A DNA stretch of 64,000 nt. Source: a bacterium (GTDB lineage Bacteria; Actinomycetota; Acidimicrobiia; Spongiisociales; Spongiisociaceae). The position numbers and the translations under genes were made by a program. How positions within the stretch are numbered: the stretch's first letter is position 1; every line of letters begins with the position of its first letter. The stretch covers positions 36,446 through 100,445 of the forward strand of contig JAPPGU010000008.1 of assembly GCA_028821265.1 (NCBI GenBank), in the 5' to 3' direction. This document shows positions 22,791 through 56,132 of this stretch, in pieces. Under the pieces are notes generated by a model that was not told the origin of the DNA, did no database searches, and saw only the letters and a list, made by a program, of their open reading frames with translations.

Positions 22791-23047
22791 CCCAGAACGC
22801 GAAAATCGCGGGCGCCCGCCTCCGGCCCAGGGCCCTCCCCCGCCACCACCTGTCCTGCCTGGAGCGTGGTCGGCCATGCCCGGCCGGCTGCCGGGCGATC
22901 GGCCTTCGCTCCTCGAAGCTCGTCTGACCCCTTGGCCGGCAAACCGATCGGTCGGTAGCTGTTCACCGGCGTAGGTGACTAGCGTCAAGCAAGGTATACC
23001 GGGGTTGTGACAGATCCGGGCCATCCCGGGGAGAACGCGAGAAATCG
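22791..23047 (+). repeat. Copy A of a ~230-bp intergenic repeat family bounded by GAACGCGAAAAT-like direct repeats
   Basis: Shares conserved core with 25500-25707 and 32392-32600: …GGGCCCTCCCCCGCCACCACCTGTCCTG..GGAGCGTGGTCG.C.ATGCCCGGCCGG..GCCGGG…CCGATCGGT…TGTGAC. Begins CAGAACGCGAAAATCG and ends GAGAACGCGAGAAATCG. Confidence 0.6.
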
Positions 23048-25499: not shown

Positions 25500-25707
25500 C
25501 TCGCGAAAGACGGGTGCTCCGCACCGGGCCCTCCCCCGCCACCACCTGTCCTGTTCGGAGCGTGGTCGCCCATGCCCGGCCGGTGGCCGGGAGGTGGACC
25601 TTCGCTCCATGAGCTGTCATGTTCCCTCGGGCCGGCCGTTCCGATCGGTCTGTCTCATCGGCCGGTATTGGTGCTTGGCGATAGGCACCATATATCAGGG
25701 CTGTGAC
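25500..25707 (+). repeat. Copy B of the ~230-bp intergenic repeat family
   Basis: ~80% identity to copies A and C over the core; ends CTGTGAC. Causes the spurious N-terminal extension of ORF 25594. Confidence 0.6.
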
Positions 25708-32391: not shown

Positions 32392-32634
32392 GTCGCGAAA
32401 ATCCGTGCCCCGCACCGGGCCCTCCCCCACCACCACCTGTCCTGTTGGAGCGTGGTCGGCGATGCCCGGCCGGCTGCCGGGTGTCGGCTGTTCGCTCCAT
32501 CGAGCTGTCATGTTCCCTCGGACCGGCCGCTCCGATCGGTACTCACATCATCGGCCGGTGTAGGTGCTTGGCGGTAGGCAACGTATATCAGGGGTGTGAC
32601 GCGTTTAACCCCTTTTCTTCAGAACGCGAAAAAT
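32392..32634 (+). repeat. Copy C of the ~230-bp intergenic repeat family (core 32392-32600 plus 3' GAACGCGAAAAAT direct repeat)
   Basis: Aligned with copies A and B; begins GTCGCGAAAATCC, ends GTGTGAC, then CAGAACGCGAAAAAT 20 nt further on. Confidence 0.6.
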
Positions 32635-33787: not shown

Positions 33788-33882
33788 TGGCGGAGGCGGA
33801 CGGGAATCGAACCCGCCGGGGCACTCTCGTACCCCCACTGGTTTTGAAGACCAGGGAGCCCACCAGGCGCTCGTTCGCCTCC
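33788..33882 (-). tRNA. selC: tRNA-Sec (selenocysteine tRNA), anticodon UCA
   Basis: Minus-strand sequence GGAGGCGAACGAGCGCCTGGTGGGCTCCCTGGTCTTCAAAACCAGTGGGGGTACGAGAGTGCCCCGGCGGGTTCGATTCCCGTCCGCCTCCGCCA. 95 nt; anticodon loop CU-UCA-AA; long variable arm (GGGGG…CCCC). T-arm GCGGG-TTCGATT-CCCGT, then an 8-nt acceptor 3' strand, G73 and CCA, giving the 8/5 acceptor/T architecture diagnostic of bacterial tRNA-Sec. -10-like TATCCT 7 nt upstream. Confidence 0.8.
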
Positions 33883-42530: not shown

Positions 42531-43325
42531 ATGAGCTACCCCATCAGGATCGCCGTGCAGATCCGTCCCCAGCACGGCGACTACCGGGACATCAGGGCGG
42601 CCGCCGTCCAGGCCGAGGAGATGGGCGTGGACGCGGTGTTCAACTGGGACCACTTCTACCCGCTCTACGGCGATCCGGACGGCAAGCACTTCGAGTGCTG
42701 GACCATGCTCGCCTCGTTCGCCGAGGTGACCGAGCGGGTGGAGATCGGCGCCCTGGTCACCTGCTACTCGTACCGCAACGCCCACCTGCTGGCCGACATG
42801 GCGCGCACGGTGGACCACATCAGCGACGGTCGCCTCATCCTGGGCCTCGGTGCCGGATGGTTCGAAAAGGACTACAGCGAGTACGAGTACCCGTACGGCA
42901 CCGGCGGCACCCGGCTCCGGGACTTCGAAGCCGGTCTGTACCGCATCACCAAGCGCCTACGGCTGCTCAACCCTCCCCCGGTGCGGGACATCCCCATGCT
43001 GATCGGCGGCATGGGCGAGAAGCAGACCCTACGGCTCGCAGGCCGCTACGCCGACATCTGGCACGGGTTCGGCGGTCCGGAGACGCTCACCCGCAAGAGC
43101 CGGATACTGGACGGTTGGTGCCGCGAGGCGGGACGTGACCCGGCCGAGGTGGAGCGCGCCATCGAGGTCGAGGACCCGACGGACATCGACCGCGCCGACG
43201 GGCTTCTGGCGGCCGGGGCCACCCTGATAACGCTGTCGATCAACGGACCCCGATACGACCTGTCGGCCGTGCCGGACTGGCTCAGCTTGCGGGACGGCCG
43301 GAACGCCGCCCGACAAGGGGGTTGA
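42531..43325 (+). CDS. Luciferase-like monooxygenase family, F420-dependent oxidoreductase class (LLM class F420)
   Basis: …AEEMGVDAVFNWDHFYPLYGD…LILGLGAGWFEKDY… TIM-barrel LLM signature. 19 nt after the selenoprotein gene stop. Confidence 0.7.
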   Translation: MSYPIRIAVQIRPQHGDYRDIRAAAVQAEEMGVDAVFNWDHFYPLYGDPDGKHFECWTMLASFAEVTERVEIGALVTCYSYRNAHLLADMARTVDHISDGRLILGLGAGWFEKDYSEYEYPYGTGGTRLRDFEAGLYRITKRLRLLNPPPVRDIPMLIGGMGEKQTLRLAGRYADIWHGFGGPETLTRKSRILDGWCREAGRDPAEVERAIEVEDPTDIDRADGLLAAGATLITLSINGPRYDLSAVPDWLSLRDGRNAARQGG

Positions 43326-43358
43326 ACCCGCCGCCGTCCCGCCCCATACTGCCCGGCA

Positions 43359-43527
43359 GTCACAAACACCACCGGGCTCTTGCTTTTCGACGTCGGAGGG
43401 ACCGGACCAGGGATCAATCGGGAGCGGACCCGTGCGGGGATGGCGGAACGCGCTCGGACCAAAGGAGGTGGTGGCTGGGGGCCGGGCCCGCCGGGTGGGG
43501 TGTTCTTCGGCGATTTTCGCGTTCTCG
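43359..43527 (-). repeat. Degenerate inverted-orientation copy D of the ~230-bp repeat family
   Basis: Reverse complement reads GAGAACGCGAAAATCGCC…CCGGCGGGCCCGGCCCCCAGCCACCACCTCCTTTGGTCCGAGCG…CCGATTGATC…GGTGTTTGTGAC, alignable to copies A-C. Confidence 0.35.
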
Positions 43528-43686
43528 ACGACCGGGAAGGGCACGGCGTGTCCGATGATCTTCGTGGCCGGTGGCCGGTGGTCAGTGGCCAGTTTGCGAT
43601 CTAGAGGTAATCAAGTCCCTTGCACCCGCAAAGCTTTTGGCGTTGTGTATTTCTCCCGAGTTACAGCATCCACTGACCACTGGTTG

Positions 43687-44895
43687 CTAAACCCGCTCTA
43701 CGACGAGCGAGATCCCCTGGCCGACCCCGATGCACATGGTGGCCAGGCCGAAGCGGCCCCGGCGGCGGGCCAGCTCGTGTACGAGGGTGGTGACGATGCG
43801 CGCCCCCGAGCACCCGAGCGGATGGCCCAGGGCTATCGCCCCGCCGTTGACGTTGAGCCGGTCCGGGTCCAGGTCCAGCTCGTCCCGGCACGCCACGGCC
43901 TGGGCGGCGAAGGCTTCGTTCAGCTCCACCAGGTCCAGGTCGGACACCTCGAGGCCGGCTCGTGCCAGCACCGTGCGGGAGGCCGGCACCGGGCCGATTC
44001 CCATCACGTCCGGATGTACCCCGGCGGCCGCCGATGACACGATGCGGGCCATCGGGGCCAGCCCGGTCCGCTCCAGGCCGGCGGCCGTGGCCAGGATCAG
44101 GCCGGCGGCCCCGTCGTTCATCGGGGAGGAATTGCCGGCGGTGACCGTGCCGCCCTCCACGAAGACGGGCCGGAGCTTGGCCAGTGCCTCCAGGGAGGTG
44201 TCCGGTCGCGGGCCCTCATCGCGGCCGATCAGCGCCATGGTGCGCCTCTTGGGCCCGGCGGGCGCCTCGATGGGAACGATCTCGGCGTCGAAGCGGCCCG
44301 CCTCCTGGGCGGCGACCGCCCTCCGGTGGCTGGCCAGCGAGAACGTGTCCTGGTCGTGGCGGGTGACGCCGTAGGCCGAGGCCACATTCTCGGCCGTCTC
44401 GCCCAGGCTGATCGGCGGGTAGGCGGCCTGCATCCGGCGGTTGACCAGCCGCCATCCCAGCACGGTGTCGACCATCTGCGGCGCTCCCACCCCGTAGGCC
44501 CGCTCCGGCTTGGTCACCACGAAGGGCGCCCGGCTCATCGACTCGGAGCCCCCTGCCACCATCACGTCTCCCCATCCCGCCATGAGCGAGTGGGCGGCGG
44601 TGATCACCGCCTGCATACCCGAACCGCACAGCCGGTTCACGGTCTGGCCGGGCACCTCGATGCCCAAGCCACCCAACAGCGCCGCCATCCGGCCCACGTT
44701 CCGGTTGTCCTCTCCGGCCTGGTTGGCCGCTCCCCAGACAACGTCCCCGACCATCTCGGGTAAGAGGCCCGGGTTGCGTTCGAGGAGGGAGCGGATCACG
44801 TGAGCAGCCAGGTCGTCGGGCCGGACTGCGGCCAACTGACCGCCCAGGAGACCCATCGGGGTCCGGCAGGCGTCGACTATGAAGACATCAGGCAT
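43687..44895 (-). CDS. Acetyl-CoA C-acetyltransferase (thiolase II)
   Basis: [15 protein letters not shown]…; C-terminal active-site region …[20 protein letters not shown]…. Confidence 0.85.
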
Positions 44896-44948
44896 TATCA
44901 GTCCCGTAGGAGGATCCCCCCGCAAGCGGGAGGCGTCGGCCGCTTACG

Positions 44949-45158
44949 CTAGCCCTGATTATTCCTGTTCCCAGCACACCAACACGAATCAGGCCACTTC
45001 AACCACATAATCCGTAAGCGGCCACCCTTCACCCGGCGGTTTTATTCCAAACCCGGCCGGGAGATGGGGCCGTCGAATGGCCATGACTCCAGGCCAGGAT
45101 CATGGAACAACCAATTCCGTCACCCGGACAAACCCCCACCATGAATAATCGGGGCTAG
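44949..45158. mobile_element. MITE-like element copy 1 (~202 bp core flanked by CTAG target duplications; 12-bp terminal inverted repeats CCCTGATTATTC / GAATAATCGGGG, 11/12; IS5-family-like ends)
   Basis: ~85% identical to 54850-55057. Both copies bounded by CTAG on each side, as in the IS5-family YTAR target duplication. No ORF inside. Confidence 0.55.
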
Positions 45159-45228
45159 GTCCCGCCGGAAACGGAGTGGCTGGTTCACAGGCTCGGCGGG
45201 TCCATACCGCCGTGGCAACTAGCTCGGA

Positions 45229-46281
45229 TCAAACGGCGAAGATTCGTTTCGGGTTCTCGATGAGCATGTCGTCGATCTGGTCTCGGGTGACACCGGCATC
45301 GAGGAGCTGGGGAACGATCTCGTTGAGGATGTAGGCGTAGCCCTTGCCGCCGTAGGCGACCAGGTGCGTCTTCAGGCACCGGTCCTGGGCGAGCATGATC
45401 TGCCGGCTGTAGCCGTCAGCGCAGAGGCGGGCCAGCGTTTCGACGCGCTCCCGGTCGGAGATCCAGTGGTCGCCGCCGAAGAGGAGGTGGGTGTCGGTCC
45501 ACGATGTGTCTCCGAAGCAGTCGTAGTCGATGGAGACGCCCCGGTCCATCACCGACTCGTGATACTCGTAGTCGGGGCAGCTCCCGTCCATATGGCTCAT
45601 GTAGACCTTGTCGAGGTCGGCGCCCTCCTCCTCCAAGATGTCGATGTAACGGTGAGCCTCCTTCATGAACACCATCGGATGCACGGTGAGCGGAACCCCG
45701 GTGGCCGCCTGGGCCCTACCCCCGGCCCGGAGGACCTTCTCCTCCTGGGGGTGCAGGGGCTCGCACATGCCCAACTCGCCGATGACGCCCGCCCGAATGT
45801 CGGTCCCCTGGATACCCACCTCGATGTCGCTGATCAACATCTCGGCCAACTCTCCCACCGATGCCGTGGCGTGGCCGGAAGGATGGGACGGAGCGATGTA
45901 CCAACCGGTGGAGGCGACGATGTTGACTCCGGTGGCTTCGCTGGCGACCACGAGGTCATCGGGGTGCCAGCCGGGGATCCGGCCGCTGACATCGACGAAG
46001 CTCTGCCCGCCGGCGTCGGCGTACAGCTGCAGCTCCCGGATGGCGACGTCCAGCTCCGTCATCCGCAGGTTGTCCTTCGATACGTACGGGTGGGCGGCGA
46101 CGTCGCCGGCGTTCTCCGGGGTCACCGGGCCCGCTGCCAGAGCCTGGATCTCGGGCGGATCGCTTGTCGAAGGCTCGTGCCAGAACAGATGCGAGGTGTC
46201 GAGCAGCAGGTGCTCGTGGCTCATAGTGACGCCGAGGTCATCCGGTGAGATCTCGCCGAGGACGGTACGGACGTTGGCCAT
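45229..46281 (-). CDS. Phosphotriesterase-family (PTE/PHP, amidohydrolase superfamily) protein
   Basis: …GVTMSHEHLLLD… (HxH metal site) …TGVPLTVHP… full-length 350 aa. Confidence 0.8.
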   Translation of the reverse strand: MANVRTVLGEISPDDLGVTMSHEHLLLDTSHLFWHEPSTSDPPEIQALAAGPVTPENAGDVAAHPYVSKDNLRMTELDVAIRELQLYADAGGQSFVDVSGRIPGWHPDDLVVASEATGVNIVASTGWYIAPSHPSGHATASVGELAEMLISDIEVGIQGTDIRAGVIGELGMCEPLHPQEEKVLRAGGRAQAATGVPLTVHPMVFMKEAHRYIDILEEEGADLDKVYMSHMDGSCPDYEYHESVMDRGVSIDYDCFGDTSWTDTHLLFGGDHWISDRERVETLARLCADGYSRQIMLAQDRCLKTHLVAYGGKGYAYILNEIVPQLLDAGVTRDQIDDMLIENPKRIFAV

Positions 46282-46298
46282 GAGCTACCGGCTTCCCC

Positions 46299-47201
46299 TC
46301 AGTTCTCCTGATCCTTATCGGAGCCGTCGAGTTGGAGGAGGCGGGCAGCGTTGCCGCCGAGGTAGGCGGCGATGTCGTCGTCGGTCAGGTCGGGGAGGCC
46401 GGGGGCGATGTTGAGCTCCTTGGCGAGGCGGGGGAAGGACTTGATGTAGGGGACGTCCTCGCGGCAGTCGTAGTTGTCGGTGCCCCACAGACACTTGTCG
46501 AGGACCTTGAAGTGCTTGGCGTACTTCAGGAACCGCACGTTGGCCTCCAACGGTTGGAGGAACCCCCACCAGCCGGTCCCGGCGTACATGTTGCGGTTCT
46601 TCAGCATCATCATCACGACCTCTTCGTAGTAGTTGAATCCGGCATGGACCACGATCAGCTTCAAGTCGGGGAACCGAACCGAAACCCTGTCCAGATACAG
46701 GGGATGCTGCTGGCTCAACAAGTCGTATCCCGCCCACCCGGTGTGGACCTGGATGATCATCCCCAACTCCTCGGCCTTCTCGTAGATAGGCATTATCCGC
46801 TCGTCGTCGAGGTTCATGTCGTAGTCGGGCGCCGGGGTGATCTTCATGCCGATGAGACCCATATCCACGATCTCCTCCATCTCCCGCAGCGCGGGGAGGC
46901 CGCCGAGGAGGTCGACGCTGCCCATGCCGATCAGCCGATCGGGGAACTTGGCCACCTCGCCCGCCACGAACTCGGACGGCACGTGGGCGTTCAGATGGGG
47001 CATTTTGATCGCGTGACTGATGGCCATGTCGACGCCTGCTTCGTCCATACGGGCGACCATCTGTTCGCCGCTCATCCCCTGGTTCAGGCCCGTCTTCTCA
47101 CCGATCTCGGTCCAGCCGGCATCGATCATCGCGTCGTCCATCATGGTCAGGTCGCCCCAGCTGTTCGGCTCCGACAGCCAGACGTGGGTGTCGATGATCA
47201 T
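46299..47201 (-). CDS. Amidohydrolase-2 family (TIM-barrel metal-dependent hydrolase, ACMSD-like)
   Basis: MIIDTHVWLSEP… N-terminal metal-binding His/Asp pattern of PF04909-type hydrolases. Confidence 0.65.
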   Translation of the reverse strand: MIIDTHVWLSEPNSWGDLTMMDDAMIDAGWTEIGEKTGLNQGMSGEQMVARMDEAGVDMAISHAIKMPHLNAHVPSEFVAGEVAKFPDRLIGMGSVDLLGGLPALREMEEIVDMGLIGMKITPAPDYDMNLDDERIMPIYEKAEELGMIIQVHTGWAGYDLLSQQHPLYLDRVSVRFPDLKLIVVHAGFNYYEEVVMMMLKNRNMYAGTGWWGFLQPLEANVRFLKYAKHFKVLDKCLWGTDNYDCREDVPYIKSFPRLAKELNIAPGLPDLTDDDIAAYLGGNAARLLQLDGSDKDQEN

Positions 47202-47371
47202 GGATACTCCCGTTCAGGCGTTTGCGCGCGCTCCTTGAGCCACTCCGGCGCCGCGCATGGACTTGAGCCCCACGATACAATCACGACCCCTGCCATCAAC
47301 GATGCACCGAGGGCGTTTCTTGCATGGAAAGGAAGCGATACGGGGCGATTGGCACTGACGAGGGTGGGCGC

Positions 47372-48556
47372 ATGAAGATCACCGGCATCCGTGTGACGCA
47401 TGTGAACGTCCCCTTTGATGCACCTTTCTGGTGGACCGCCGGTCTCTATCCGGGTGCGTCGAAATCGATCGTCGAGGTGGAAACCGACGAGGGCATAGTC
47501 GGCCTTGGGGAGGCGCCGTGGTGGCATTTCGGCGAGGTGATCGAGCGAGAGATCGCGCCCGCTCTGATCGGTGCCGACCCGTTCGATCTCGCCGACTGCG
47601 AGGCGCGGTGCGTGCCTGCCTATCAGATCACCGCGAACACCGGCGAGACTGCCTCGATGGTCGCTTTCGGCGCCGTCGAATTGGCACTCTGGGACATCCA
47701 GGGCAAAGCCCTCGACATGCCCCTCTACAGGCTGCTGGGCGGAGCCGTGCGCAAGGAGATCCCTTTCACCGAATACTTCTCGTTCCGGCCTGAGCACAAG
47801 GGCGCGGGCGGCGAGATGTCGGCCGAGGCCATCGTCGAGTACTGCCTGAGGATGTGCGAGGAACACGGCTCGACCTACTTCGAGGGCAAGCTGATTCTGG
47901 GCGACCCCGAGCTGGAGATACGGACTGTCGCCATGTTGCGCGAGGCCCTCGGCGCGGACGCCATGATCCGCCTCGACTCGAACATGCAATGGTCGCTGAC
48001 CACCGCCCGCTGGGTGTTGCGCGAGGTCGAGGCGTTCAACATCCGCAACTACGAGGACCCGGTCGCAACGTTTGAGGAGATGGCAGAGTTGCGCCGCCAT
48101 ACGATGATCCCCTTCTCCACCCATGTGCCGGACCTGCGCCGCGCCGTCGCGCTGGGGGCGCCCGATGCCTTTGTCTGCAACTTCGCGGCACTCGGCGGCA
48201 TCAGGGCGACGCTCAGATTCGTGGCCGCTTGCGAGGCGATGGGCAAGGACTTCTGGTGCTACTCGAATGACCTCGGCATCATGACCGCGGCCTATCTACA
48301 TCTGACGGCTGCGACGCAGTGGATCACCGAGCCGTCGCAGTCGTTGTTCCGCTGGCAGATCGGGGACGTGGTCGAAGGCGGACCCTTCCGCCAGACCGAC
48401 AACACCATCCGCGTTCCCGAAGGACCCGGCCTCGGCGTCGAGCTCGACCCCGAGTCGATGGCGCGCTGGCACCAGCATTTCGTGGATAACGGGCCGATGA
48501 GCCATTTCCATCATCCGGAGAGCCCGGACCATTACACGCGTTTGCCGCTCAACTGA
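47372..48556 (+). CDS. Mandelate racemase/muconate lactonizing enzyme family (enolase superfamily)
   Basis: MKITGIRVTHVNVPF…IVEVETDEGIVGLGEAP… capping domain plus TIM barrel with metal ligands. Confidence 0.8.
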   Translation: MKITGIRVTHVNVPFDAPFWWTAGLYPGASKSIVEVETDEGIVGLGEAPWWHFGEVIEREIAPALIGADPFDLADCEARCVPAYQITANTGETASMVAFGAVELALWDIQGKALDMPLYRLLGGAVRKEIPFTEYFSFRPEHKGAGGEMSAEAIVEYCLRMCEEHGSTYFEGKLILGDPELEIRTVAMLREALGADAMIRLDSNMQWSLTTARWVLREVEAFNIRNYEDPVATFEEMAELRRHTMIPFSTHVPDLRRAVALGAPDAFVCNFAALGGIRATLRFVAACEAMGKDFWCYSNDLGIMTAAYLHLTAATQWITEPSQSLFRWQIGDVVEGGPFRQTDNTIRVPEGPGLGVELDPESMARWHQHFVDNGPMSHFHHPESPDHYTRLPLN

Positions 48557-48590
48557 TGCGCTCCATCGTGAAGCCGGGACTGGAGGGATC

Positions 48591-51038
48591 GTGAAGTCGC
48601 AGTACCGGGTGGTGGTGATCGGGGGCGGCGTGGTCGGCGCCAGCGTGCTGTATCACTTGACGAAGCTGGGTTGGAGCGACGTGGCGATCGTGGAGCGAGA
48701 GGTGTTGACAGCCGGGTCGAGTTGGCACGCCGCCGGCGCTGTGCATGCTCTCAACGCCGATCCGAATATCGCGGCTCTGCAGGCGTACACGATCGATCTG
48801 CTTTCCGAGATCGGGGAGGAGTCGGGCCTCGACGTGGGGATGCACATGACGGGTGGCATCTCGGTGGCTTCGGCGCCGGAGCGGTGGGAGTGGTTGCAGG
48901 CGGCGTATCGAGTGTTCCAGACGATGGGTATCGAGGACGTGCGGCTGATCGGCCCCGATGAGATCGAGCAGTGGTGCCCGATCATGAACGTCTCTGATGT
49001 GCTCGGGGGTCTGTGGGCGGACCGTGAGGGGTATATCGATCCGTCGGCGGTGGTCCATGCCTACGCCAAGGCTGCCCGGTCGCGGGGTGGCGACGTGATC
49101 GAGCACAACCGGGTGCTCGAACTACGCCCACGCCGGGACGGGTCGTGGGAGGTGGTGACCGAGGGTGGAACCATCGTCGCGGAGCACGTCGTGAACGCCG
49201 CCGGGCTGTGGGCCAAGCAGGTGGGGCGAATGGCGGCGGTGGAGCTTCCGGTCTCGCCGATGCAGCATCACTACCTGGTCACCGAGACGATCCCCGAGAT
49301 CGCGGCGCTCGACTTCGAGGTGCCGATCATGATCGACCTCGAGGGCTACACCTACATGCGTCAGGAGCTCCAGGGGGTGTTGGTCGGGGTCTATGAGCGC
49401 GATTGCCGGCATTGGAACATGGACGGTGCGCCGTGGGATTACGGCGTGGAGCTGATCCCACCGGAGGTGGATCGGATCTCGAGCGAGCTGTCGTTTGCGA
49501 TGTCCCGCTACCCGGTCCTAGAGCACACCGGTATCAGCCGCTGGGTGAACGGGGCGTTCACGTTCTCGCCGGACGGCAACCCCCTGGTGGGTCCGGTGCC
49601 CGGGTTGCGCAACTACTGGTCGGCGTGTGCGGTGATGGCCGGTTTCCTCCAGGGCGGCGGCGTGGGCAAGTCGCTGGCGGAGTGGATGATCGAAGGGGAA
49701 CCGGAGGAGGACATCTTCGCGATGGACGTGGCCCGTTTCGGGTCCTACGCCGAGAACCGTGAGTACATCCGCCAGATGACCGCGCAGTTCTACTCGCGCC
49801 GGTTCGTCATCACCTACCCCAACGAGGAGTTGTGGGCGGGCCGGCCGTTGCGCATGGCCCCGGCGTACGATGCGATGACCGAGGCCGGGGCGCAGTGGGG
49901 GTGCTCGTACGGTCTGGAGATCCCGATCTACTTCGCCCCCAAGGGCTTAGAAGAGGTGCCTACCCTGCGCCGCTCCAACGCGTTCGACATCGTCGGCGAA
50001 GAGTGCCGCCGGGTGCGTTCCACCGTCGGGATCCTCGACATCGCCGGGTTCTCCCGCTACGAGGTCACCGGTCCCGGCGCCGCGGCATGGCTCGATCGGC
50101 TCTTCGCCGGCGCGTTACCCGCACCCGGGCGGATCAAGCTCGCCCCGATGCTGGGCCACGACGGCCGGCTCAAAGGAGACCTGACGTTGTTCAACTGGGG
50201 GGACGGCACGTGGTGGATCGTGGGCTCGTACTACCTGCGGGCCTGGCACATGCGCTGGTTCAACGACCACCTCGGCGACGGGGTGGCGGTGCGTGACATC
50301 TCGGATGCCGTCGTCGGCTTCTCGCTCTCCGGGCCGGGTTCTCGCGACCTGTTGCAACGGGTCGCGTCGGATGACGTCTCGGCGGAAGGCATGCGCTTCA
50401 TGGGGTGTCGTGAGCTAGACGTCGGCATGATCCGGGCCCGGGTGGGCCGGATATCGGTCACCGGAGAGCTCGGGTACGAGATCCACTGCCCGGCCGCCGA
50501 GCACATCGCCCTGCGCCGCCTCCTTCTGGAGGCCGCCGACGGTCTCGATGCGATCGAGTACGGCTACAACGCTCTGATGTCGCTCCGGATCGAGAAGAGC
50601 TTCGGCGTCTGGTCGACCGAGTTCCGCCAGGAGTACACCCCGGCCATGACCGGGTTGGACCGATGGATCGACTGGTCCAAGGACGGCTTCATCGGCGCCG
50701 GGGCGGCCCGCAAGGAGCGGGACGACGACAGCGCCGCCAGGAGGCTGGTCACCCTCGAAGTGGACGCCACCGACGCGGACGCCACCGGGTACGAGCCGGT
50801 GTGGAACGGTGACCGGAGGGTCGGCTACATCACCTCGGGCGACTACGGCCACACCATCGGCAAGAGCCTCGCCATGGCCCTCATCGACCGGGAGCACACC
50901 GCGGAAGGTACCGAACTGGCAACCCATATCGTCGGGGTCGAACGCCCGGCCCGGGTGATCGCCCCCTCACCCTACGACCCGGACGGCCAGGCGATGCGAG
51001 CCGGTTCAGCACCCATGAATCGCACCCCGGATGGGTAA
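48591..51038 (+). CDS. Dimethylglycine/sarcosine dehydrogenase-like flavoprotein (FAD oxidoreductase fused to GcvT-type aminomethyltransferase/folate-binding domain)
   Basis: N-terminal VVVIGGGVVGASVLYHL (FAD); C-terminal GcvT-like domain. 815 aa, as in DMGDH/SarDH. Confidence 0.85.
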   Translation: MKSQYRVVVIGGGVVGASVLYHLTKLGWSDVAIVEREVLTAGSSWHAAGAVHALNADPNIAALQAYTIDLLSEIGEESGLDVGMHMTGGISVASAPERWEWLQAAYRVFQTMGIEDVRLIGPDEIEQWCPIMNVSDVLGGLWADREGYIDPSAVVHAYAKAARSRGGDVIEHNRVLELRPRRDGSWEVVTEGGTIVAEHVVNAAGLWAKQVGRMAAVELPVSPMQHHYLVTETIPEIAALDFEVPIMIDLEGYTYMRQELQGVLVGVYERDCRHWNMDGAPWDYGVELIPPEVDRISSELSFAMSRYPVLEHTGISRWVNGAFTFSPDGNPLVGPVPGLRNYWSACAVMAGFLQGGGVGKSLAEWMIEGEPEEDIFAMDVARFGSYAENREYIRQMTAQFYSRRFVITYPNEELWAGRPLRMAPAYDAMTEAGAQWGCSYGLEIPIYFAPKGLEEVPTLRRSNAFDIVGEECRRVRSTVGILDIAGFSRYEVTGPGAAAWLDRLFAGALPAPGRIKLAPMLGHDGRLKGDLTLFNWGDGTWWIVGSYYLRAWHMRWFNDHLGDGVAVRDISDAVVGFSLSGPGSRDLLQRVASDDVSAEGMRFMGCRELDVGMIRARVGRISVTGELGYEIHCPAAEHIALRRLLLEAADGLDAIEYGYNALMSLRIEKSFGVWSTEFRQEYTPAMTGLDRWIDWSKDGFIGAGAARKERDDDSAARRLVTLEVDATDADATGYEPVWNGDRRVGYITSGDYGHTIGKSLAMALIDREHTAEGTELATHIVGVERPARVIAPSPYDPDGQAMRAGSAPMNRTPDG

Positions 51039-51047
51039 AGTGAGGTC

Positions 51048-51170
51048 ATGAGGGGAGTGGTCGGCAACGCTGCGCCCGTGTTCGACTTCCGCGGTGAGAT
51101 CAGCGGGGCCCTCGCCATGGCCGGCAAGGTCGATCGAATCCCGGTTCATGAGGCTGCGCTCGCTTCTCGT
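51048..51170 (+). pseudogene. IclR-family regulator C-terminal remnant
   Basis: …GVVGNAAPVFDFRGEISGALAMAGKVDRIP… matches the IclR effector-domain C-terminal signature (APVFDxxGxxxGAxS). No HTH N-terminal part upstream (DMGDH ends at 51038). Confidence 0.4.
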
Positions 51171-51253
51171 GATCGCAGCGGCCAACCAGATCTCGTACGA
51201 GTTCGGCCGGCTTGGCCCGGGCCGGCAATGACCAGCAAAGGCGGAGCGGCGAC

Positions 51254-51958
51254 ATGACCTACACGATCCTCGGATGTGACTCTGCGACGGGCCGCGTCGG
51301 CATCGGCATCGCCACCCACTCGATCGCCGCCGGCGGGTACTGCCAGGTGGTCCGGTCCGGCATAGGCGCGATCGCCAGCCAGGCGTACGCCGACCCCAGG
51401 CTGCTCCCCGTGGCAACCGACATGCTGGAGCGCGGCCTCTCCCCTGCGGAAGTCGTCACCGGGTTGGCCGACGTTGATCCCGACTACGCCTTTCGCCAGA
51501 CCGCAGTGCTGACCCCGGACGGGGTCGCCGCTGCGCACACCGGGGACAGGACAGGCCACTGGTCCGGCCACGTCATCGGCGACGGCTACATCGCCACGGG
51601 GAACTCCCTCGAGGGTGAAGGGGTGGTCGAAGCGATGGCCGACGCGTTCGAGTCGGCGGCGGGTAGTCCTGTGGAGGACCGCCTGGTGGCCGGCCTGGAG
51701 GCCGGCCGCGATGCCGGAGGCCAGGTCGGGGACTACTACGAGCGCTCGGCCACGCTTGTGGTGGCCGAGACGGATACGTTTCCCGACATCGATCTGCGCA
51801 TCGACTTCCACGCGTCCGACGCCGTCGGCGAGCTTCGCTCCCTGCTCCATGTCTACCGGCCATACCTGCACATCTACAACCACGTCCGCACCAAGGAGCC
51901 TCGACAAGCCGTCGGGATGACCTACGAAGAGTGGAATCCGCTTCCCCCGGAAGGTTGA
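51254..51958 (+). CDS. DUF1028-family (Ntn-hydrolase-like) protein
   Basis: MTYTILGCDSATGRVGIGIATHS… N-terminal Thr/Cys nucleophile context typical of DUF1028. Confidence 0.55.
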   Translation: MTYTILGCDSATGRVGIGIATHSIAAGGYCQVVRSGIGAIASQAYADPRLLPVATDMLERGLSPAEVVTGLADVDPDYAFRQTAVLTPDGVAAAHTGDRTGHWSGHVIGDGYIATGNSLEGEGVVEAMADAFESAAGSPVEDRLVAGLEAGRDAGGQVGDYYERSATLVVAETDTFPDIDLRIDFHASDAVGELRSLLHVYRPYLHIYNHVRTKEPRQAVGMTYEEWNPLPPEG

Positions 51959-51959
51959 G

Positions 51960-52943
51960 ATGCGCTACCGAAAGCTCGGGCGTACCGGGCTGGAGGTGTC
52001 GGAAGTCGGCATCGGGACGTGGGGCATCGGAGGGCTGGACTGGGGCTCGCGGGACGACCGTCGCTCCCGTCGGGCCCTACACATGGCCGTCGACTCCGGC
52101 GTCAACTTCGTCGACACGGCCTACGGCTACGGGAAGGGCCGCTCCGAGGCGCTGATCGGGCAGGTACTGCGTGACCTCGGCGCCGGCCCGAAGCCGATCG
52201 TGGCGACCAAAGTGCCGCTCAAAACCGGTGTGTGGCCCGCGACGGACGACATGGCGATCGAGGACTGCTACCCGGGAAGCTGGATCCGGGGCTGCACCGA
52301 GAAGAGCTTGCGCCGCCTCGGCGTCGACCGCATCGACCTGCAGCAGTTCCACTTCTGGGCCGACGCGTGGACCGAGCACGGTGGCTGGCGCGAAACGGTG
52401 GCGGATCTGAAGCGGGAGGGAAAGGTGCGCTTCTTCGGGGTGTCGACCAACGATCACGATCCGGATTCGGTCCTGCGCGTGCTGGACACGGGCGCGCTGG
52501 ACACCGTGCAGGTGATCTACAACGTCTTCGACCAGTCGGCCTCGGAGCGGCTGCTGCCGAAGTGCGCGGCGCTCGACATCGGCGTGATCGCACGCTCGCC
52601 CTTCGACGAGGGGAGCCTCACGGGGACGCTGCGCGACGACACCGTGTTCGCCGAGGACGATTGGCGCCGCGGCTACTTCCGGGGTGATCGGCTCGCTACT
52701 GCGGCAGCGAGGGCGCGCGGCGTCGCGTCGGTGATCGGCGCAGAGGCTTCGAGCCTCGCCGACGGCGCCCTGCGCTTTTGTCTCAGCGAGCCTGCCGTGT
52801 CCACCGTCATCCCGGGGATGCGCTCACCCGGCCACGTAGGCGAGAATTGCGCGGTGTCGGACGGACGATTGCTCTCGGCCGGTGTCCTCGAGCGGCTGCG
52901 TGACCACGCATGGGCTCGCAACTGGTACGCCGATGCGTGGTGA
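51960..52943 (+). CDS. Aldo/keto reductase
   Basis: MRYRKLGRTGLEVSEVGIGTWGIGG…VNFVDTAYGYGKGRSE… AKR signature. Confidence 0.85.
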   Translation: MRYRKLGRTGLEVSEVGIGTWGIGGLDWGSRDDRRSRRALHMAVDSGVNFVDTAYGYGKGRSEALIGQVLRDLGAGPKPIVATKVPLKTGVWPATDDMAIEDCYPGSWIRGCTEKSLRRLGVDRIDLQQFHFWADAWTEHGGWRETVADLKREGKVRFFGVSTNDHDPDSVLRVLDTGALDTVQVIYNVFDQSASERLLPKCAALDIGVIARSPFDEGSLTGTLRDDTVFAEDDWRRGYFRGDRLATAAARARGVASVIGAEASSLADGALRFCLSEPAVSTVIPGMRSPGHVGENCAVSDGRLLSAGVLERLRDHAWARNWYADAW

Positions 52944-53113
52944 CGGCAGAGCACGGGGCCTGGGAGGGCTGATGTTTGTCGTGGTCGTCTTGCCGATACT
53001 GCTTTATCTGCTCCCAGTTGAACTCGCGGACCATCCCCGACCTCCCTGATGCTCGGCTCCGGCCTTAGTAGTGAGTCAAATCCGTTGGCATGCCTGGAAA
53101 TGGGCCTGGTCGC

Positions 53114-54355
53114 TCACCGAGCGACACCGGGCAGTATGGCCCTGGCGTTGTCTCCGAGCACCATCCGGCCGGCTTGTTCCGCCTCCGCCTCGGTCCACTC
53201 CAGGTCGGCAGAGAGATCGCTCAGCACGTGTGTCAGATGTTTCCGCATCCGGTGTGCGCTGTAGCCGAGCCATTCGGCCGATGCGTAGGAATCGCTGCCG
53301 TAGAGCACCTTGTGCGCAGGAGCTATGGACAGAATGGTGCGCAGAATCGAATTGAGGCGCCCCGGTATCCGCATCGTGTGGGACAGGTCGACGTACACGT
53401 TGGGAAACTGCCAGGCCAGGTAGGCGGCGTTCTCGTGGTACGGCGCCCCGGCATGGAGCATGACGAACGTCGTTGCGTTCGAAGCCGGGTCCGAGAAAAG
53501 AGAGAACAAGCGTGCCGGATCCGCGGCGGGCAGGTTCTGGTTGGGCGAGTACTGGGCCCCGGTGTGAATCAGCTGCAGCAGGCCGAGATCGCCGGCGCGG
53601 GCGACGATGTGGCGGATCACGAAGTCCTCGTATGCCCGCGCCGCGCGCCCTGTCGCCTCGTCGTAGATCCCGATGCGCCCGAACAGGAACGACTCTTTCA
53701 CGTCGGCCGGGGGCGTCGCCGCTACACGGCGCAGCCCGGAAGCGGCTTCATCGGCGGTGGGCCTCGAGACGTCGAGCGCGCGGTAGTAGCCCATCAGGTT
53801 CTTGAACCCGACGCACCCTTGCGACACGGCAATGTCGATCGACTCGTCGACCCACCTGATGGCGTCGTCGAGCGAAGTGATGCCTCTATCGATCACGGCT
53901 AGTGGAGAGAGCAACGGGGTGATTCCGTAGATCCACACATAACGGTCGTCCGGGAATCCGGCGGCCCCGTCACGCAACTCGCCGAGCAGGTCGAGCACAA
54001 CGAGGTCGATACGCTCCCGGTCGAGCACCGATTCCAGATACATGCTGAAGCCCTGCTCCATCGCGGCAGAGAGCGTTTCGTCGATCTCCATGACATCGGG
54101 CTCGCATCCCAGGGCCCCGGCCACGTACCTGATCAGCATGCGGTACTGCGAGTTGAGCGGGTGGGCCCATTGCGCCATGCCGCGCTCGTAGTCGGGGACC
54201 GGTTGAAGATCGTCCCAGCGATATGACCTGCCCGGCGTGCCGTGGAAGAGGTTCAGTTGGGCGGTCACGTCGCGCCGGATCAGCTCGCCCACACCGATCT
54301 GGAGCGACATGTGGGCATGGAAATCGACTACGCCGGCGTCGGTGAGGTCGATCAT
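53114..54355 (-). CDS. Amidohydrolase-family protein (TIM-barrel metal-dependent hydrolase)
   Basis: MIDLTDAGVVDFHAHMSLQ… (HxH); 413 aa. Confidence 0.6.
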   Translation of the reverse strand: MIDLTDAGVVDFHAHMSLQIGVGELIRRDVTAQLNLFHGTPGRSYRWDDLQPVPDYERGMAQWAHPLNSQYRMLIRYVAGALGCEPDVMEIDETLSAAMEQGFSMYLESVLDRERIDLVVLDLLGELRDGAAGFPDDRYVWIYGITPLLSPLAVIDRGITSLDDAIRWVDESIDIAVSQGCVGFKNLMGYYRALDVSRPTADEAASGLRRVAATPPADVKESFLFGRIGIYDEATGRAARAYEDFVIRHIVARAGDLGLLQLIHTGAQYSPNQNLPAADPARLFSLFSDPASNATTFVMLHAGAPYHENAAYLAWQFPNVYVDLSHTMRIPGRLNSILRTILSIAPAHKVLYGSDSYASAEWLGYSAHRMRKHLTHVLSDLSADLEWTEAEAEQAGRMVLGDNARAILPGVAR

Positions 54356-54468
54356 GCTGCGAACTGGTAGACCTGTAGCCGGTCGCCTTCGGGGTGATAG
54401 AGCTCGAGTGACGTGTCGAAATCGCCGACGTAGAACATGACCGCGCCGATCTTCATCATCTCACCCCC

Positions 54469-54740
54469 TCAGACGGCGAAGATCCGCTTCGGGTTCTCCA
54501 CCAGGAGATCGTTCAACTGATCTTCGGTGACCCCGGCCTCGCGCAGCATCGGAACCACCTCGGTCAGAGCGTACACCCATCCCTTGCCGCCGTGCTCGGC
54601 GAAGTGCGCCTCGAGACAGTGGTCGTGCGCAATCATGACCTGCTTGCTGTAGCCGTCTGCGCCCAACCGGGCGAGCGTTTCTACCCGCTCCTGGTCCGAG
54701 ACCCGGTGGTCTCGTCCGAAGATGAGGTGCGACTCGTTCC
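54469..54740 (-). pseudogene. Truncated phosphotriesterase-family gene (C-terminal ~90 aa only)
   Basis: …FGRDHRVSDQERVETLARLGADGYSKQVMIAHDHCLEAHFAEHGGKGWVYALTEVVPMLREAGVTEDQLNDLLVENPKRIFAV is ~60% identical to the C-terminus of the intact PTE-like gene at 45229-46281. No N-terminal 260 aa. Second MITE copy lies 110 bp upstream. Confidence 0.6.
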
Positions 54741-54849
54741 ACCTCGGCGACTACCTGGATCTTCTCGACCAGCTCCGCCCCGTAGTGAACGTCGCCACCC
54801 CGGTGCCCAACGGCAACCTCCGGATCGCTTCAGTCGTTGATGGCCCTGT

Positions 54850-55057
54850 CTAGCCCTGATTATTCCTGTTCCCAGCACACCAACGCGGATCAGGCCACTT
54901 CAACCACACAATTCGCAAGCGACCACACTGCTCCCTGCGGTTGATTCCGCACCGAATGGAAGACGGGTCTATCAGATGGTTGTAACCCCAGGCCACGAGT
55001 ACGAAGCATCCATTCTCGTCACCCGGACAGACCCCCACCATGAATAATCGGGGCTAG
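54850..55057. mobile_element. MITE-like element copy 2 (CTAG-flanked, same 12-bp terminal inverted repeats)
   Basis: CTAGCCCTGATTATTCCTGTTCCCAGCACACCAAC…GAATAATCGGGGCTAG, ~85% identical to copy 1. Confidence 0.55.
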
Positions 55058-55157
55058 CAGCGTATCGATCCCAACTACCCGGACATCGCCGCAACCGCAC
55101 CCACCGCCACTGCGCCACGACAACATCGGGGATTGGGTCGGTCGGTAGGCTACGCCG

Positions 55158-56132
55158 GTGCTCTGGCTGGGTCTAGCTCTTATCGCCGCCGGCATCGTCC
55201 TGCTCTGGGTATCAGCGGATCCCTTCGTGGTGGCGGCGGCCCGCCTGGCCCACATCTGGGGGGTCTCCCCGGTGCTGGTGGGAGCGCTCGTGATCGGGTT
55301 CGGTACCTCCGCGCCCGAGATGGTGGTTAGCGCGGTGGCGGCGGTCCGGGGGGAGCTGGCCGAGTCGGTGGGCAACGTGGTGGGTTCCAACGCCGCCAAC
55401 CTGTCGCTGGTGCTAGGAGTCAGCGCGGTCATCTCGCCGGTGGTCGGGCAGTTGCGGACCATCCGCCGCGAGGGGATTATCACGCTGGTCGCCATGGCGG
55501 CGATGATGGCCGCTGCCTGGGATGACACGCTGGCCCGGTGGGAAGGCGTCCTGCTGGTGTCGGGCATGGCCATCGCCACGGTGTGCCTGCTCGCCTGGTC
55601 CAGGCACGACGTCAAGGCCCGGGTAGCCGTCACGTCCCCCGGCTCTGTATTCGACGAGATGATCGAAGGGACCGGCGACAAGGCGGCGCCGGAGATCGGA
55701 CGCGCCTCCATGTCGATAGTGGGGATCGTGGCGGGGGCCTGGCTCCTTGTCGAGGGAGGCAGCCAGGTGGCCGATGTCTACGGGCTGGCCGGGGGGTTCG
55801 TGGGCGCCACCATCTTCGCCCTGGGAACCAGCCTGCCCGAGCTGGTGACCGCGGTGGCCGCCGCCCGGCGGAAGGCCAACGAACTGGTGATCGGCAACCT
55901 CCTGGGGTCCAACCTCTTCAACTCCTTCCTGGTGGTCGGGGTGGCCGGGATGGTGGGCGCCGGCCCGATCGGGGAGCGACGAGTCTGGGAGCACGTCATG
56001 ATGATGGTGATCGGAGTTGCGGTGGGGATCATGGCCGCTACCCGATCCCGTCTGGGACGCTCCCACGGCGTAGTCCTGCTGGGGTTGTTCGGGCTGTTCA
56101 TCGCGGTGGTCGGCACCAACGCCACGGTGTGA
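55158..56132 (+). CDS. CaCA-family cation/Ca2+ exchanger (YrbG-like Na+/Ca2+ antiporter)
   Basis: Two alpha-repeat regions (…GFGTSAPEMVVS… and …ALGTSLPELVTA…). GTG start. Confidence 0.8.
   Translation: MLWLGLALIAAGIVLLWVSADPFVVAAARLAHIWGVSPVLVGALVIGFGTSAPEMVVSAVAAVRGELAESVGNVVGSNAANLSLVLGVSAVISPVVGQLRTIRREGIITLVAMAAMMAAAWDDTLARWEGVLLVSGMAIATVCLLAWSRHDVKARVAVTSPGSVFDEMIEGTGDKAAPEIGRASMSIVGIVAGAWLLVEGGSQVADVYGLAGGFVGATIFALGTSLPELVTAVAAARRKANELVIGNLLGSNLFNSFLVVGVAGMVGAGPIGERRVWEHVMMMVIGVAVGIMAATRSRLGRSHGVVLLGLFGLFIAVVGTNATV

Follow-up and report, generated by a model that had tools for sequence, protein, structure and literature searches.

Short non-autonomous elements with probable IS1380-type partners in sponge-associated Acidimicrobiia

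INTRODUCTION

The IS5 group of insertion sequences (ISs) is known for a 4-bp YTAR target duplication, and IS5-type ends start with GG or GA in the ISfinder description. Members of the IS1380 family, as described in the same resource, are ~1.5 to 2 kb long and have a single open reading frame (ORF), ends starting with CC, and a 4- to 5-bp target duplication. IS1247, an IS1380-family member, measures 1672 bp and has a 5-bp direct repeat (PMC3281130, Table 2). The family is the recognised bacterial counterpart of the eukaryotic piggyBac superfamily (PMC5718144), and piggyBac itself has 13-bp CCC-initiated terminal inverted repeats (TIRs) and a TTAA target (PMC5381638); its excision proceeds via hairpins formed on the ends of the transposon (PMC8151067, which cites Mitra et al. 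2008). Here we describe two ~200-bp repeats in a 64,000-nucleotide stretch of contig JAPPGU010000008.1, from an acidimicrobial genome of the family Spongiisociaceae (the whole stretch is called the window). We propose, with a probability of roughly 0.8, that the two repeats belong to a family of miniature inverted-repeat transposable elements (MITEs) with an IS1380-type partner and that they arose by separate simple insertions.

RESULTS

Two copies of one element in the window

The two repeats lie in direct orientation and comprise the following parts.

44949–44952, no strand: left target-site CTAG of copy 1, assigned from family-wide YTAR flanks
44953–45154, plus strand: MITE copy 1, 202 nt, window-type subfamily, from sequence and family hidden Markov model (HMM)
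44953–44964, plus strand: left TIR of copy 1, CCCTGATTATTC
45143–45154, minus strand: right TIR of copy 1, CCCCGATTATTC on the minus strand
45155–45158, no strand: right target-site CTAG of copy 1
54850–54853, no strand: left target-site CTAG of copy 2
54854–55053, plus strand: MITE copy 2, 200 nt, window-type subfamily, from sequence and family HMM
55054–55057, no strand: right target-site CTAG of copy 2

An initial annotation of the window had reported two ~200-bp repeats here, ~85% identical and with CTAG on all four flanks, and this holds: the copies are 86% identical end to end. Identity drops to ~70% in the middle and is complete over the first 31 and last 23 nt of the element (35 and 27 nt when CTAG is included). 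The 12-bp TIRs proposed in the same annotation are present in both copies but are imperfect, agreeing at 11 of 12 positions, with CCCTGATTATTC at the left end and CCCCGATTATTC as the reverse complement of the right end. The window contains two occurrences of the 28-nt left end, for which shuffling gave an expectation of 0.00 (none in 100 shuffles), and four of the 12-mer terminus, for which it gave 0.34. CTAG is depleted in the window (41 sites, compared with 102 expected from dinucleotide-preserving shuffles), and the MITE flanks make up 4 of the 41. The family HMM found no third copy in the window, and tblastn found no IS5-family or IS1380-family transposase there. At 202 and 200 nt, non-coding and free of transposase similarity, both copies have the dimensions of a MITE (below ~300 to 500 bp).

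A dispersed family with YTAR targets

One genome per GTDB species was scanned with a single criterion, two 12-nt ends lying 162 to 192 nt apart. This terminus-only scan returned more than 117 stretches, nearly all from Acidimicrobiia metagenome-assembled genomes (MAGs). OY760694.1 has at least 84 MITE blocks and OZ246890.1 at least 37; other copies were found in “Candidatus Spongiisocius” sp. OZ241858.1, “Ca. S. variivorans,” and two Acidimicrobiia bins. The 129 copies that could be oriented each have unique flanks and lie in both orientations at unrelated sites, and the termini are conserved at 98 to 100% among 121 aligned copies. Two subfamilies were distinguished, a major one in OY760694.1 and OZ246890.1 and the window type elsewhere, which was seen in the window (2 copies) and in the compared sequences L016, L061, L062, and L063. 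Both window copies still match the major-subfamily HMM along their full length (E = 2e-15). Copy 1 is nearest to L061 (Ca. Spongiisocius sp. OZ241858.1; 94% identity) and copy 2 to L062 (Ca. S. variivorans; 92% identity), in each case at a different site; the window copies thus belong to different sub-lineages and are not derived from each other. L063, a 7.2-kb contig 97% identical to window positions 48622–55795, holds the orthologue of copy 2 and the neighboring phosphotriesterase (PTE) gene fragment in the same place.

The target of the family is YTAR (CTAG, TTAA, CTAA, TTAG). Among 128 copies, the central flank positions are TA in 95 to 98% on each side, the left outer base is C in 89 and T in 37, and the left inner base is G in 91 and A in 37. 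The first base of the left tetranucleotide equals that of the right one in 89% of copies. When left and right flanks of 129 copies were paired, the classes were CTAG with CTAA (39 copies), CTAG with CTAG (24), TTAA with TTAA (15), TTAG with CTAG (6), CTAA with CTAA (6), TTAG with TTAG (4), and ATAG with ATAG (1). Three clean pairs of filled and empty sites were found between genomes, L069 versus L087 (TTAG), L095 versus L097 and L043 (CTAG), and L040 versus L094 (TTAA), and all three empty sites carry one single tetranucleotide; a wider empty-site search with 400-nt flanks gave the same few pairs only, with none of the CTAG...CTAA class. Because other copies vary as YTAR and the empty sites hold one tetranucleotide, these bases derive from the target and not from the repeat. 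The initial annotation had read CTAG as a target duplication while allowing that further copies might show it to be part of the repeat; the varying flanks of those copies uphold the first reading. Its view of the element as a non-autonomous, TIR-bounded MITE is likewise supported by size, TIRs, YTAR flanks, dispersed copies, and empty sites.

MITEs from the two large MAGs, L111:733 and L023:1113, share an orthologous left flank and have unrelated right flanks, which suggests a rearrangement that ended at the MITE on one side.

IS1380-family elements with similar ends

A stray terminus match in L126 provided the lead to IS1380. The element at L134:7140–8843 measures 1704 bp, has CCCTGATTGTTCA as a perfect 13-bp TIR, and is bordered by CTAG on both sides. 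Its 456-amino-acid (aa) ORF (L134:7260–8627) matches the IS1380 model NCBIfam NF033539 with 278.8 bits (cut-off, 180) and the Pfam models PF13701 and PF01609 (DDE_Tnp_1_4 and DDE_Tnp_1). Five more elements encode transposases 72 to 86% identical to that of L134 and have the same ends and perfect 4-bp duplications. All six full-length elements are 1697 to 1704 bp long, with 13 of 13 TIR positions matching, CCCTG at their ends, and a single ORF for a 454- to 456-aa transposase; the duplications are CTAG in three and TTAG, CTAA, and TTAA in one each. In size, ORF, ends, and duplication, these sampled elements agree with the description of the IS1380 family. The MITE ends match theirs at 11 to 12 of 13 positions and at up to 16 of 20 positions ungapped, and several MITE copies contain the exact sequence CCCTGATTGTTC. 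A further IS1380 relative, 59% identical, ends in CCCCGATCGTTCA and is flanked by CTAG/TTAG; taken with the CCCTGATTGTTCA elements, it defines a clade consensus of CCCYGATYRTTCA plus YTAR.

Such elements also occur close to the window's own lineage. L144, a metagenome contig 94 to 97% identical to the window, carries an IS1380 end, CCCTGATTCTTCATGG, together with the last ~52 transposase codons (region L144:7292–7620). This relic is inserted at CTAA just downstream of an amidohydrolase gene, at a site that is empty in the window.

53065–53068, minus strand: unoccupied CTAA site (TTAG on the plus strand), occupied by the IS1380 relic in L144

The relic in L144, at a site that the window has empty, shows that such elements have been active in the window's own lineage. 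Judging from the shared ends and target, the transposase that mobilises the MITE most likely belongs to the IS1380 family. The MITE encodes nothing and would move only if a transposase made elsewhere recognised its 12- to 13-bp ends. That transposase would insert at YTAR tetranucleotides (CTAG, TTAA, CTAA, or TTAG) and duplicate them. In some sponge-associated Acidimicrobiia, the family has reached about 100 copies per genome or more. Copy 1 would have entered the spacer between a PTE gene and a thiolase gene, and copy 2 a stretch of decayed genes.

Several observations weigh against this interpretation. No autonomous element that was sampled ends exactly in CCCTGATTATTC...GAATAATCGGGG, and neither the window nor any of the 117 MITE-bearing 8-kb blocks contains an IS1380 transposase. 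The sampled IS1380 elements sit on metagenome contigs, although these are of similar GC content and share another Acidimicrobiia motif. Similarity between MITE and IS is confined to about 13 to 27 terminal nt, and the MITE therefore did not arise from the sampled IS1380 elements by simple internal deletion. Neither window copy has an empty site, and their mobility is deduced from that of the family. The fourth flank base agrees between left and right in only 55% of MITE copies, and the CTAG...CTAA class (39 of 129) is not predicted by a plain 4-bp duplication.

A second IS1380-family lineage occurs in the same assemblies (L130–L133), with the TIR CCTGGATCCACCG. These relatives were considered as partners and rejected, since their ends, CCTGGATCC, differ and they are flanked by 5-bp CTTAG or CTAAG; IS5-family elements have repeatedly inserted at the TTA/TAA flanking them. 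Contigs carrying P0356 are assembly chimeras across a repeat, and their left/right flank pairs are unusable.

The phosphotriesterase locus and the independence of the copies

The two copies lie beside the following genes and gene remnants.

43687–44925, minus strand: thiolase gene, Pfam Thiolase_N/C
45229–46281, minus strand: intact PTE-family gene, 350 aa, Pfam PF02126, 231 bits
54400–54459, minus strand: first ~20 codons of a glyoxalase/VOC gene, remainder deleted, from comparison with L144
54469–54742, minus strand: 3′ fragment of a second PTE-family gene, last 88 to 89 codons plus stop, PF02126, 64 bits
54743–54849, no strand: 107-nt segment separating the PTE break-point from the left CTAG of copy 2, found in L063 and absent from L144

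Copy 1 is situated in the spacer between the stop codon of the intact PTE gene, 74 nt away, and the thiolase start, which is 28 nt away if the longest possible start is taken. An exact look-up of the window PTE protein in public assemblies returned no record. The second PTE gene is a 3′ fragment, as the initial annotation had stated: it covers PF02126 profile positions 215–297 of 298, is not full-length, and has a stop codon and unrelated sequence upstream. Its break-point falls after 54742, 111 nt from copy 2, and these 111 nt (54743–54853, including CTAG) have no match except the L063 orthologue.

In L144, the same PTE fragment is present with a break-point identical to the base, and there is no MITE there; IS256-family transposase (PF00872) pseudogene fragments (L144:4368–5374) abut the break-point instead. 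L144 also has an intact 122-aa glyoxalase-family gene (PF00903; L144:5640–6004) between the PTE fragment and the amidohydrolase gene, and the deletion of its glyoxalase/VOC counterpart in the window is a second recent gene loss at the PTE locus. In L145, which carries an amidohydrolase orthologue of 68% identity, a PTE 3′ end lies directly upstream of that gene and is followed by the contig end. The ancestral layout was probably PTE–(glyoxalase)–amidohydrolase. Because L144 shares the break-point and has no MITE there, copy 2 cannot be blamed for the PTE truncation. The truncation is older than the divergence of the window, L063, and L144, and rearrangement of the junction has occurred again since then; the truncated paralogue reads as an older pseudogene in a rearrangement-prone spot and not as a product of copy 2.

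The initial annotation had suggested element-associated rearrangement or deletion of the PTE paralogue, to be checked by looking for an intact second gene in relatives. The locus does collect mobile-element debris, but damage by the MITE is not supported, given the L144 break-point. Among the relatives, the fragment recurs in L063 and L144, and L145 shows only the 3′ end before its contig ends.

A larger role for the copies was also weighed, in which they act jointly, by bounding a 10.1-kb composite transposon (44953–55053) that carries the PTE, amidohydrolase, and oxidoreductase genes or through recombination that truncated the PTE gene. Their direct orientation and the CTAG on both outer flanks would suit such a unit. 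MITE-associated rearrangement does occur elsewhere (L111/L023), the locus is rich in mobile-element relics, and 43.2–55.16 kb is missing between the same flanking genes in the distant relative L114. That missing segment is, however, 1.8 kb larger than the MITE-bounded unit, and the genome is only 70 to 78% identical. All four flanks are CTAG, so that each copy has its own matching duplication, copy 2 looking like the product of a simple insertion. Identity between the copies is only 86%, they group with different sub-lineages (L061 versus L062), and the PTE break-point lies 111 nt from copy 2 and is common to L144, which lacks copy 2 there. We consider joint action improbable and infer that the two window copies are independent insertions.

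Alternative classifications of the element

The initial annotation had assigned the element to the IS5 group, relying on the YTAR duplication and on a resemblance between GAATAA and an IS5 end. A MITE of that group would be moved by an IS5-family transposase that duplicates CTAG/YTAR, a target typical of the group. The same genomes contain many IS5-family transposases (NF033580), one of which is located within a MITE-bounded unit, L025:6229–7392 (1164 bp, MITE ends, IS5-family ORF, NF033580, 158 bits). L025 was tried as the autonomous parent and rejected: inside it is an inner IS of ~960 bp with its own TIRs, GAGCGTCCGCGGGTAGG, and a TAA duplication, so the unit is an IS5-family element nested in a MITE and mimics an autonomous element. 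Relatives of its transposase, L118–L129 (8 plus 4 identical copies), belong to 963- to 977-bp elements that have separate GAGCG TIRs and cleanly duplicate 3 bp, TTA/TAA (TWA). None of these 12 copies has CCCTGATTATTC ends, and no IS5-type element was seen to carry the ends of the MITE; matching ends were found on IS1380-family elements. The GAATAA resemblance is in the wrong register, as the element starts with CCC and not with GG or GA. The YTAR target is common to the IS1380 clade and does not discriminate between the two. The IS5 assignment is therefore not borne out; it is largely refuted and in our judgment very improbable, and an IS5-family element with CCCYGATTRTTC ends would be needed to revive it.

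Equally improbable is a TA-duplicating, IS630/Tc1-mariner-like MITE that has G-CCC...GGG-C as its real ends and is inserted into CTAG. With CTAG on both sides, either reading gives the same sequence, and the classes CTAG with CTAA (39) and TTAG with CTAG (6) fit the pattern x-TA-[G...C]-TA-y. The classes TTAA with TTAA (15), CTAA with CTAA (6), TTAG with TTAG (4), and ATAG with ATAG (1), in contrast, need different terminal bases, and the product expected at a TTAA target, TTAG with CTAA, was never seen. Since the outer base on the left recurs as the first one on the right in 89% of copies, at least 3 bp are duplicated, and the empty sites for L040 (TTAA) and L069 (TTAG) show a single 4-mer. 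Related autonomous elements have 4-bp duplications of four different sequences, and no IS630-type partner was seen.

Least probable of all is that the repeat is no mobile element but a conserved structured RNA gene or a regulatory or repetitive extragenic palindromic-like repeat: each strand gives a better fold than shuffled sequence does (z about −3.4) and the ends are more conserved than the middle, but much of the fold is pairing of the TIRs, no Rfam match was found at the gathering threshold or at E ≤ 1, a promoter and terminator scan at copy 1 found no such site, and the copies, one of which has an IS inserted in it, are scattered over unrelated sites in either orientation and have target duplications as well as empty alleles.

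Asymmetry of the flanks

The target duplications of the MITE copies are asymmetric. In 83% of copies, the left tetranucleotide is a palindrome, CTAG or TTAA, and in no copy does it have a pyrimidine as its fourth base. The right fourth base is A in 71, G in 46, C in 8, and T in 3 copies; of the 11 copies with C or T there, 9 have CTAG or TTAA on the left. The mirror image of the CTAG...CTAA class is rare (6 compared with 39). By contrast, all six full-length IS1380 elements have perfect 4-bp duplications.

Several explanations of the asymmetry were rejected. Deamination of methyl-cytosine, converting CTAG to CTAA, predicts four equal single-change classes, and the counts are 39, 6, 1, and 0. 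Recombination between copies and fixed extra bases at the ends do not fit the counts, and TA-only (IS630-like) and strict 3-bp duplication models each leave large flank classes unexplained. An assay for heritability of the element-adjacent base, by clustering on the MITE alignment, was powerless, as genome of origin was itself unclustered (P = 0.19).

As Mitra and colleagues are said to have reported in 2008, excised piggyBac keeps 4-nt 5′ overhangs copied from the donor site, which are ligated into the target without DNA synthesis. The asymmetry might be the footprint of a comparable synthesis-free cut-and-paste by a bacterial IS1380-family transposase, an explanation that we put forward tentatively and regard as unlikely. 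An excised element would keep 4-nt 5′ overhangs copied from its donor site, and an overhang would be ligated into a degenerate YTAR target when its 5′ end pairs. The element-adjacent base would then be donor derived and the outer base target derived. As a hypothesis, such donor carry-over would reproduce most of the flank classes; it would leave the left/right bias unexplained unless the two ends (CCCT versus CCCC) are processed differently.

Other features of the window

In the distant relative OY760694.1 (L114:2418–2576, compared with window 43229–55158), the luciferase-like and Na/Ca-exchanger genes are adjacent. In the window, these genes lie at 42531–43325 and 55158–56132, and the 12-kb stretch that is absent there from OY760694.1 includes the thiolase gene, both PTE copies, amidohydrolase genes, a DAO/GCV_T gene, and both MITEs.

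A recurring 150- to 230-nt non-coding motif, unrelated to the MITE, occurs at window 43300–43540 (plus strand) and in the minus-strand sense at 22825–23011, 25521–25707, and 32411–32600. It was also seen in L007, L022, L023, L040, L047, L061:1881–2113, L094, L099, L102, and L121. Its core is ...GGAGGTGG.GGC.GGGGG.GGGCCC..., followed 20 to 40 nt on by GATTTTCGCGTTCTCG. The window copy is 83% identical to that of L061, and the motif has no Rfam match; it may be a structured RNA or leader or another Acidimicrobiia repeat family. A selenocysteine tRNA gene lies at 33792–33882 (minus strand; Rfam RF01852, 77 bits; ARAGORN anticodon TCA).

DISCUSSION

The element described here is a high-copy MITE family of sponge-associated Acidimicrobiia MAGs, and its copies are repeats of the kind that break short-read assemblies. 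It adjoins genes, as 28 nt upstream of the thiolase gene, and marks rearrangement-prone loci. Its assignment is mainly a matter of annotation: a partner in IS1380 rather than IS5 would tie the MITE to the bacterial relatives of piggyBac, and specifically to an IS1380 clade whose tetranucleotide target (CTAG/TTAA) resembles that of piggyBac and whose 13-bp TIR begins with CCC. Gene decay is ongoing in these symbionts, as illustrated by the truncated PTE gene, the deletion in the glyoxalase gene, and the relics of ISs in relatives. In a literature search of limited coverage, neither an account of IS1380-derived MITEs from Acidimicrobiia nor any work on Ca. Spongiisocius was found.

Only the flank asymmetry seems to us worth following up. 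To our knowledge, the processing of donor and target DNA by IS1380-type transposases has been little studied, and the family offers material on it in the form of more than 100 dated, natural insertions whose flanks are partly mismatched.

Compared with known systems, the family resembles bacterial MITEs in general (Correia elements and IS630- and IS5-derived MITEs) in its ~200-bp length, TIRs, target duplication, lack of an ORF, high copy number, intergenic location, and fold-back potential. It differs from them in its likely IS1380 partner, in its uncultivated sponge-associated Acidimicrobiia hosts, and in a fourth flank base that is unusually asymmetric between left and right. With the IS5 group it shares the 4-bp YTAR/CTAG duplication but not the start of the ends, which is CCC here. 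The partner elements are like the IS1380 family (e.g., IS1380, IS1247, and ISEcp1) in their transposase models, ~1.7-kb length, and CC ends; the window, in contrast, holds only a 200-bp non-coding derivative, and the clade found here has a strict YTAR target and the 13-bp TIR CCCYGATYRTTCA. Unlike piggyBac, the elements here are bacterial and use a degenerate target (YTAR), but they are like it in the 13-bp CCC TIR, in the palindromic 4-bp target (CTAG and TTAA being preferred here), and in belonging to a related transposase family.

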